From assembly GCF_055900595.2 (NCBI RefSeq), contig NZ_CM148325.1: a stretch of 64,000 nt of DNA. The stretch is one strand, 5' to 3'. Shown here in pieces: positions 62,668 through 62,765 of the stretch (position 1 is its first letter; every line of letters begins with the position of its first letter). The notes under the pieces are model-generated. The model worked only from the letters and a program-made list of their open reading frames with translations. It was not told where the DNA came from and searched no databases. A program made the position numbers and the translations under genes.

Positions 62668-62765
62668 ATAGATTCGTGAATAGATACTCGAATGGATTTA
62701 ATTTTCTATCCATATGAAAAATAATAGTAAATCTATAAATCAGTCGCTATTGATGAATAGATACT

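Follow-up and report, generated by a model that had tools for sequence, protein, structure and literature searches.

Orphaned direct repeats beside deoD in Escherichia coli are probable autoregulatory operators of the toxin kinase HipH

The 12-mer TGAATAGATACT is repeated in a short stretch between a helix-turn-helix (HTH) ORF and the deoD terminator of the window (the whole 64-kb stretch of DNA that was analysed). Both copies probably belong to an array of autoregulatory operators of the toxin kinase HipH, which has been orphaned in the window and is drifting. The homology, synteny and conservation of this array, the covariation of its boxes with the recognition helix of HipH and a repressor-like mutational footprint in K-12 point to this origin, with HipH itself as the presumed binding protein. 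As hipH is found neither at the locus nor elsewhere, the array of the window is an orphan, a member of its family by descent and not by current function.

Results

A four-box array beside the deoD terminator

Exactly two copies of TGAATAGATACT are present in the window, both on the + strand (62677-62688 and 62754-62765) and spaced 77 bp apart. The original prediction rightly described a spaced pair of this 12-mer, but placed each copy 2 nt from its true position, in opposite directions (62679-62690 and 62752-62763), and gave the distance as about 70 bp. Its description of the stretch between the HTH ORF and the deoD terminator as AT-rich was correct (62665-62768, 25% GC). With up to 1 mismatch allowed, 100 dinucleotide-preserving shuffles contained 0.19 matches to TGAATAGATACT on average, and two were reached in 3 of the 100; by our own estimate, the bare 12-mer would be expected by chance about 0.5-1 times per genome.

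The 12-mer is part of a larger arrangement (Table 1). Its 9-mer core, TGAATAGAT, is found once more at the end of the 87-aa HTH ORF, where the TGA of the core is the stop codon, and a degenerate copy of the core, CGAATGGAT, directly follows the first 12-mer. Read on the - strand, these copies form three tandem ATCTATTCA boxes with a 12-bp period and one distal box, in the order agtATCTATTCA - 56 nt - ATCCATTCG agt ATCTATTCA cga ATCTATTCA ttt ATG. The distal box and box 3 are 65 nt apart, start to start, both here and in K-12, and this is also the modal value in the unbiased set of hipH loci described below. Elsewhere in the window two more single exact copies of TGAATAGAT are found (23736-23744 and 38486-38494), and at up to 1 mismatch the window holds 14 matches to the core against 13.4 expected, in line with chance.

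Table 1. Features at the right end of the window, ordered along the deoD/hipH strand.
Feature	Position	Strand	Remarks
deoD intrinsic terminator hairpin	62768..62797	-	13-bp GC-rich stem, then UUUUU; perfect 12-nt inverted repeat
Putative distal HipH box ATCTATTCA + AGT linker	62754..62765 (box 62754-62762)	-	exact; abuts the T run of the deoD terminator
Spacer, 56 nt, AT-rich	62698..62753	-	corresponds to the hipH core-promoter region in K-12
Tandem box 3, degenerate ATCCATTCG	62689..62697	-	2 mismatches to the box
Tandem box 2 ATCTATTCA + AGT linker	62677..62688 (box 62677-62685)	-	exact match
Tandem box 1 ATCTATTCA	62665..62673	-	+ strand TGA is the stop codon of the HTH ORF
Relic hipH start codon ATG	62659..62661	-	3 nt past box 1; from alignment with K-12 and CFT073
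Replacement segment with 87-aa Xre-type HTH ORF (62404-62667)	62373..62658	+	40.8% GC; occupies the K-12 hipH position

The right end of the window corresponds to the serB / ytjB / lplA / deoD / deoB region of E. coli. The deoD terminator, a GC-rich hairpin with a U run directly after the stop codon and on the strand of the gene, is kept in K-12, and an 81-nt RNA containing it folds at -35 kcal/mol (z = -4.84). The hairpin is absent from the output of a consensus terminator scan, and an Rfam search of 62300-62900 gave sub-threshold matches on the terminator hairpin and nothing else. Scans of the window and of the K-12 region revealed no sigma-70 consensus on the hipH (-) strand, the single promoter-like match lying on the + strand, upstream of the HTH ORF. 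The position of the hipH promoter is thus one that we infer.

hipH and the HTH gene are alternative alleles

Of 5426 complete E. coli genomes, 4068 matched a 601-bp query over its full length, and these matches are annotated lplA / 'helix-turn-helix domain-containing protein' / deoD. In the other genomes the match runs from window position 62659 onward with nothing before it, at 86-88% identity, and the neighbouring gene is yjjJ. DNA of hipH was found in 1348 E. coli genomes, at one place in each. With 4068 genomes carrying the HTH allele and 1348 carrying hipH, one place each, the two alleles are mutually exclusive, and genomes with the allele of the window are therefore without hipH. An 81-nt BLAST query over the boxes also matches the hipH allele, via the shared box region. 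The window's own form of the allele is rare, with only 33 genomes at least 99% identical. One near-identical locus (L003, 99.8% identical to the window) gave no tblastn match to YjjJ, and its RefSeq annotation lists lplA, the HTH gene and deoD only.

In K-12 (L001), yjjJ, now named hipH (1332 bp, its start being the CAT at L001 2501-2503), lies on the strand of deoD and fills the interval from the ATG to the lplA stop. Copies of TGAATAGAT are found there at L001 2507, 2519, 2531 and 2596: three perfect tandem units with the same linkers as in the window (agt, cga), ending 3 nt from the hipH ATG, and a fourth unit that adjoins the deoD terminator. Over the tandem boxes and linkers, 36 of 39 positions are identical between the window and K-12, as are the surroundings of the distal box; the 56-nt spacer has an ungapped identity of 44.6%. 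The distal box is found at the same position in K-12, E. albertii and many Enterobacterales. Past the relic ATG, the resemblance to hipH is lost within a few bases. Apart from this ATG there is no hipH at the locus in the window, and so no adjacent gene with an SQxTxSR helix; the alignment shows the hipH coding sequence to have been replaced from codon 2 onward. The gene order deoD-hipH-lplA-ytjB-serB is widespread in Enterobacterales, which makes the hipH-bearing state ancestral and the HTH allele derived.

The breakpoint at the former hipH start codon lies directly beside the tandem boxes, and high identity resumes at the distal box. An alignment of related strains, proposed originally as a check on whether the repeats mark an indel boundary, therefore does place boxes at the edges of a diverged block, but they are not products of an insertion; they coincide with these edges because they are conserved islands.

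The 56-nt spacer (62698-62753; L001 2540-2595; also compared in L004) has diverged to saturation between the two E. coli alleles and, by eye, is also strongly different between E. coli and E. albertii, while being nearly invariant within each allele. A search for a donor of the spacer and HTH segment among loci L001-L212 returned, besides E. coli HTH-allele loci, chance matches of 12-17 nt only; the spacer itself matches E. coli HTH-allele loci alone in that set, and the Escherichia HTH-allele loci L213-L216 also carry it. In CFT073 (L002 2290-2990) an IS200C copy occupies the junction of the distal box and the deoD terminator, and separates hipH and its boxes from deoD.

Homologues of the 87-aa Xre-type HTH protein were found in Escherichia and Shigella only, many of them as fragments. 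The gene is annotated in RefSeq as a pseudogene (internal stop or frameshift) in L127, L128 and L129 and is truncated in L216, and looks dispensable. A kinship between the 87-aa protein and the N-terminus of HipH was considered and rejected (BLASTP E 0.18 or worse), and the idea that the two share a DNA specificity was dropped for that reason.

Boxes upstream of hipH in Proteobacteria

One genome per species (100,044 species, 298 Gb) was scanned on both strands for the pattern TGAATAGATNNNTGAATAGAT, and at least 120 loci were found, against a chance expectation that we estimate at about 9 for its 18 specified bases. The 122 loci analysed comprise the 120 matches listed together with K-12 (L001) and CFT073 (L002). 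Among these, an ORF with a HipH-type HTH starts just past the last box and on the correct strand in 74 of 122, and many of these loci also have a single distal box. The encoded proteins share 30-95% identity with K-12 HipH (30-60% outside Escherichia), and the loci come from Enterobacterales, Xanthomonadales, Betaproteobacteria and other groups, many of them in unrelated genomic contexts. The HipH box thus appears, from these matches, to be conserved from Enterobacterales to Betaproteobacteria and Xanthomonadales.

A search for homologues of HipH found 5486 of them. Since the sample above was chosen by the boxes themselves, a second was drawn: 80 metagenomic hipH loci picked by peptide patterns of the kinase domain only, 79 of which had enough upstream sequence. 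At least one exact ATCTATTCA was found on the sense strand within 200 nt upstream in 46 of the 79, at least two boxes (up to 1 mismatch allowed) in 44 and 12-nt tandems in 37; the antisense strand of the same 79 regions held just 5. A 12-nt step separates neighbouring boxes in 52 of 71 pairs, distal boxes stand 58-77 nt (in one case 109 nt) upstream of the tandem group, and the last box ends 4-32 nt before the estimated start codon in 52 of 54 loci. The array of the window has the same layout, being situated between the deoD terminator and the 5' end of hipH, with at least two tandem boxes at a 12-bp period on the hipH strand and a distal box within 58-77 nt.

Two kinds of box pair were found away from hipH. 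In Acinetobacter towneri (L036 1603-1623) and in L123 (6893-6913) an exact tandem pair lies about 15 nt upstream of an ORF beginning MTIQRCGWCSDDPLYIAYHDLEWG, which we take to resemble 3-methyladenine DNA glycosylase I (Tag). These two loci are near-identical, with no hipH in the flanking DNA examined, and the pair could reflect chance and shared ancestry or could be a second HipH target. Five contigs of one Verrucomicrobiaceae MAG (L006-L010) share an identical stretch with a tandem pair before a P-loop protein (…LLRGAPGIGK…); this is probably a multicopy element, unrelated to hipH.

Covariation of the boxes with the recognition helix

Covariation between box and protein was tested on 76 usable loci of the unbiased set. 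Where the recognition helix begins with Q, as SQ(P/A)TxSR, at least two NATTCA boxes were found within 120 nt upstream in 57 of 59 loci. Any other helix was accompanied by such boxes in 0 of 17 loci, most of which carry other repeats. This contrast is strong (Fisher test, p = 4.5e-15, not corrected for phylogeny), and part of it could reflect co-inheritance, because the helix classes are also subfamilies. SR or TR helices were found with CGTT(T/A)C(A/G) repeats (ATCGTTTCA-type) in 8 of 9 loci. GATGCA-type repeats accompany DR or NK helices. More generally, hipH loci without ATCTATTCA have direct repeats of the ATCGTTTCA type, the (A/T)T(T/C)GATGCA type or AAAAGCAAATCA in the same place. The variant-helix loci are L142, L147, L190, L207, L143, L164, L169, L180, L187, L202, L208, L168 and L172. 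By subfamily, repeats spaced by 12 bp were seen as ATTGATGCA with DRSTVTR, as ATCGTTTCA with SR(A/P)TLxR and as AAAAGCAAATCA with PPATLMR. No box was identified upstream of hipH homologues with SVPT(V/L)HR or SVRSLHR helices. Covariation of this kind is what co-evolution of a protein with its operator would be expected to produce.

The AlphaFold2 model of K-12 HipH (pLDDT 94.5) has a predicted winged HTH with helices at residues 3-8, 15-22 and 26-35 and a wing at 39-42 and 49-53. In this model the third helix, which is usually the recognition helix, has S25 as its N-cap and begins with Q26. A search of solved structures by sequence gave no match to HipH, and Foldseek with the model returned HipA, HipT and CtkA kinases only, with no solved complex of a HipH HTH and DNA among them.

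Published data on the K-12 hipH promoter

Reg-Seq reported two repressor-type sites at the yjjJ promoter, numbered from a computationally predicted transcription start: -24 to +18, which was assigned to MarA, and +30 to +45, which is repressor-like and was left without an assigned factor (PMC7567609, supplement). In MG1655 the latter corresponds to TCTATTCACGAATCTA, that is, box 2 and the start of box 3; the mutagenised interval ends there and truncates the site. Box 2 of the window aligns with MG1655 4621745-4621753, inside this site. The site assigned to MarA sits in the K-12 spacer and has no counterpart in the window.

The suggestion in the original prediction that the repeats are protein-binding sites is upheld in substance: four boxes are kept upstream of hipH in many genera, they covary with the recognition helix of HipH, and those of K-12 coincide with the repressor-like Reg-Seq site, binding by HipH being what we infer from this.

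Other reports bear on the protein and on its promoter. ChIP-exo with myc-tagged YjjJ returned zero binding sites, and its authors placed YjjJ among the non-HTH proteins, as a likely toxin and not a regulator (PMC8464067). Elsewhere the HTH of HipH is said to possibly 'function to bind DNA', and the regulation of HipH is described as unknown (PMC8262856). The HTH domain is needed for toxicity and for localisation to the nucleoid, and hipH transcription answers to c-di-GMP through its promoter (PMC11452175). The deoD-yjjJ spacer has been listed as an H-NS site with a constitutive promoter (PMC3946193), whose -10 element (TCTATT) falls inside a box. Searches of the literature with the motif strings, HipH, and yjjJ with operator found no description of an operator or box motif.

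Decay of the array in the HTH allele

With hipH gone, the boxes should be unconstrained. Box 3 has two substitutions in the window and is perfect in K-12 and in the common HTH-allele forms L127 and L128. Changes are also found in other HTH-allele loci: one substitution in box 1 in L003, an altered box 3 in L126, the loss of one 12-bp unit in L129, mutations in three of four boxes in L213 and L214 (whose HTH protein is named Escherichia marmotae by the source) and a partly deleted distal box in L215. In our own tally of the alignment, which covers about a dozen sequences, the proportion of variable sites in the boxes is close to that in the spacer and in the HTH ORF. At six hipH-bearing Escherichia loci every tandem box is intact. 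The commonest HTH-allele forms sampled (L127, L128 and L216) have all four boxes intact, as would be expected of a young relic, and this is no proof of lost function.

Arrays without hipH were also found in Serratia plymuthica (L043), Pantoea sp. (L071), L054 and L069, while L117 keeps fragments of hipH only. Such orphan arrays in other genera indicate that loss of hipH leaving its operator array behind is recurrent. At L054 (1254-1351, Enterobacteriaceae bacterium RIT691) a 217-aa ORF on the - strand, hydrophobic and membrane-like by eye, starts at the end of the box array and may have captured the hipH promoter and operator.

Discussion

The data are best explained by the boxes being operators through which HipH controls its own gene. 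In hipH-bearing genomes the array would overlap the promoter and leader of hipH, and most likely the N-terminal winged-HTH domain of HipH binds the boxes head-to-tail and so represses its own transcription. Where hipH has been replaced, as in the window and about 75% of complete E. coli genomes, the array would be left with neither its cognate gene nor the protein. The array of the window would then be a relic drifting at about the neutral rate, in which box 3 already has two substitutions, and its boxes are presumably without function in this strain. Boxes in or near the transcribed leader could also possibly have a role at the RNA level or as promoter elements.

The nearest comparison is the K-12 hipH promoter, which is orthologous DNA with the same boxes, linkers, distance to the ATG and position after the deoD terminator; the window differs in the absence of hipH, the degenerate box 3 and a 56-nt spacer that is unrelated in sequence. 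Two other systems offer analogies. OmpR/PhoB-type boxes are head-to-tail repeats of 9-10-bp cores with a period of 10-11 bp, which overlap promoters and are read by a winged HTH. The HipH boxes appear similar in being head-to-tail repeats at roughly one helical turn that overlap a promoter and would be read by a winged HTH, but their period is 12 bp and, in place of a response regulator, the presumed reader is a kinase toxin. HipB, an Xre-type dimer, is a protein of its own and recognises inverted repeats. At hipBA, four sites bound by HipB overlap the promoter (PMC8262856), and the HipA-HipB-DNA structures 4PU4 and 4YG7 were among the fold-search matches of HipH. By analogy, the HipH array would likewise serve the autoregulation of a HipA-family kinase toxin, with an HTH reading several short operators at its promoter. 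Unlike hipBA, hipH has no antitoxin gene, its winged HTH is fused to the kinase in the predicted structure, and its boxes are direct repeats with a 12-bp period and a distal site. The boxes may be regarded as presumptive operator repeats of a toxin-antitoxin-type autoregulator, with HipH as the presumed ligand.

It is unlikely that the boxes of the window are still functional, either bound by another protein such as the 87-aa Xre HTH or forming with the spacer an unrepressed promoter for an antisense RNA that runs across the HTH gene into lplA. Three of four boxes are intact in the window and all four in the commonest HTH-allele forms of the sample, the layout of the array and the old ATG persist, and at L054 a different gene begins exactly at the hipH start, which suggests promoter capture. 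However, the 87-aa HTH is unrelated to that of HipH and has the boxes at the 3' end of its gene, this gene is itself truncated or annotated as a pseudogene in several strains with the boxes, the boxes of the HTH allele have gathered substitutions and lost a unit, and the - strand has no match to the sigma-70 consensus.

We consider it very unlikely that the boxes serve a different conserved factor, or act as promoter or leader elements themselves, and that their association with hipH is merely positional. The lack of YjjJ binding in ChIP-exo (PMC8464067), the H-NS site and constitutive promoter with its -10 inside a box (PMC3946193) and the response to c-di-GMP through the hipH promoter (PMC11452175) would each fit such a reading. 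Yet hipH is accompanied by the boxes in unrelated genomic contexts and in different classes of Proteobacteria, and the class of box changes with the first residues of the HipH recognition helix, which would not be expected of a host factor.

That the repeats are a target-site duplication or scar of the element that replaced hipH, as was originally suggested, or a chance repeat in AT-rich DNA, is scarcely credible: they do border the region in which the two E. coli alleles differ, and the IS200C of CFT073 is inserted immediately beside the distal box, but both 12-mers are on the deoD side of the replaced segment and do not flank it, all four boxes are present in the un-replaced alleles of K-12, CFT073 and E. 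albertii and in other genera, alignments with K-12, E. albertii and Citrobacter refute a scar, no transposase, integrase or terminal inverted repeat was found in the ORF list, a repeat search or the annotation of L003, and cross-species conservation excludes chance.

Beyond the window, we lean towards the view that ATCTATTCA-type direct repeats represent an operator code of HipH toxin kinases, undescribed in the literature searched, in which the residues at the start of the helix set the class of box (SQ with TATTCA, SR with CGTTTCA, DR or NK with GATGCA). If true, this would be the first defined DNA target for the HTH domain of HipH, the operator would persist as an orphan in three quarters of E. 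coli strains, and the repressor site that Reg-Seq left without a factor in K-12 would be explained. With a conserved box motif that changes in step with the recognition helix, there is a defined sequence on which autoregulation and DNA targeting by HipH may be tested. The result also gives a date and limits to the hipH/HTH allele swap, by which E. coli is divided about 25% to 75%. The window itself would be an ordinary relic of gene replacement, its puzzling repeat being the leftover control region of a lost toxin gene.
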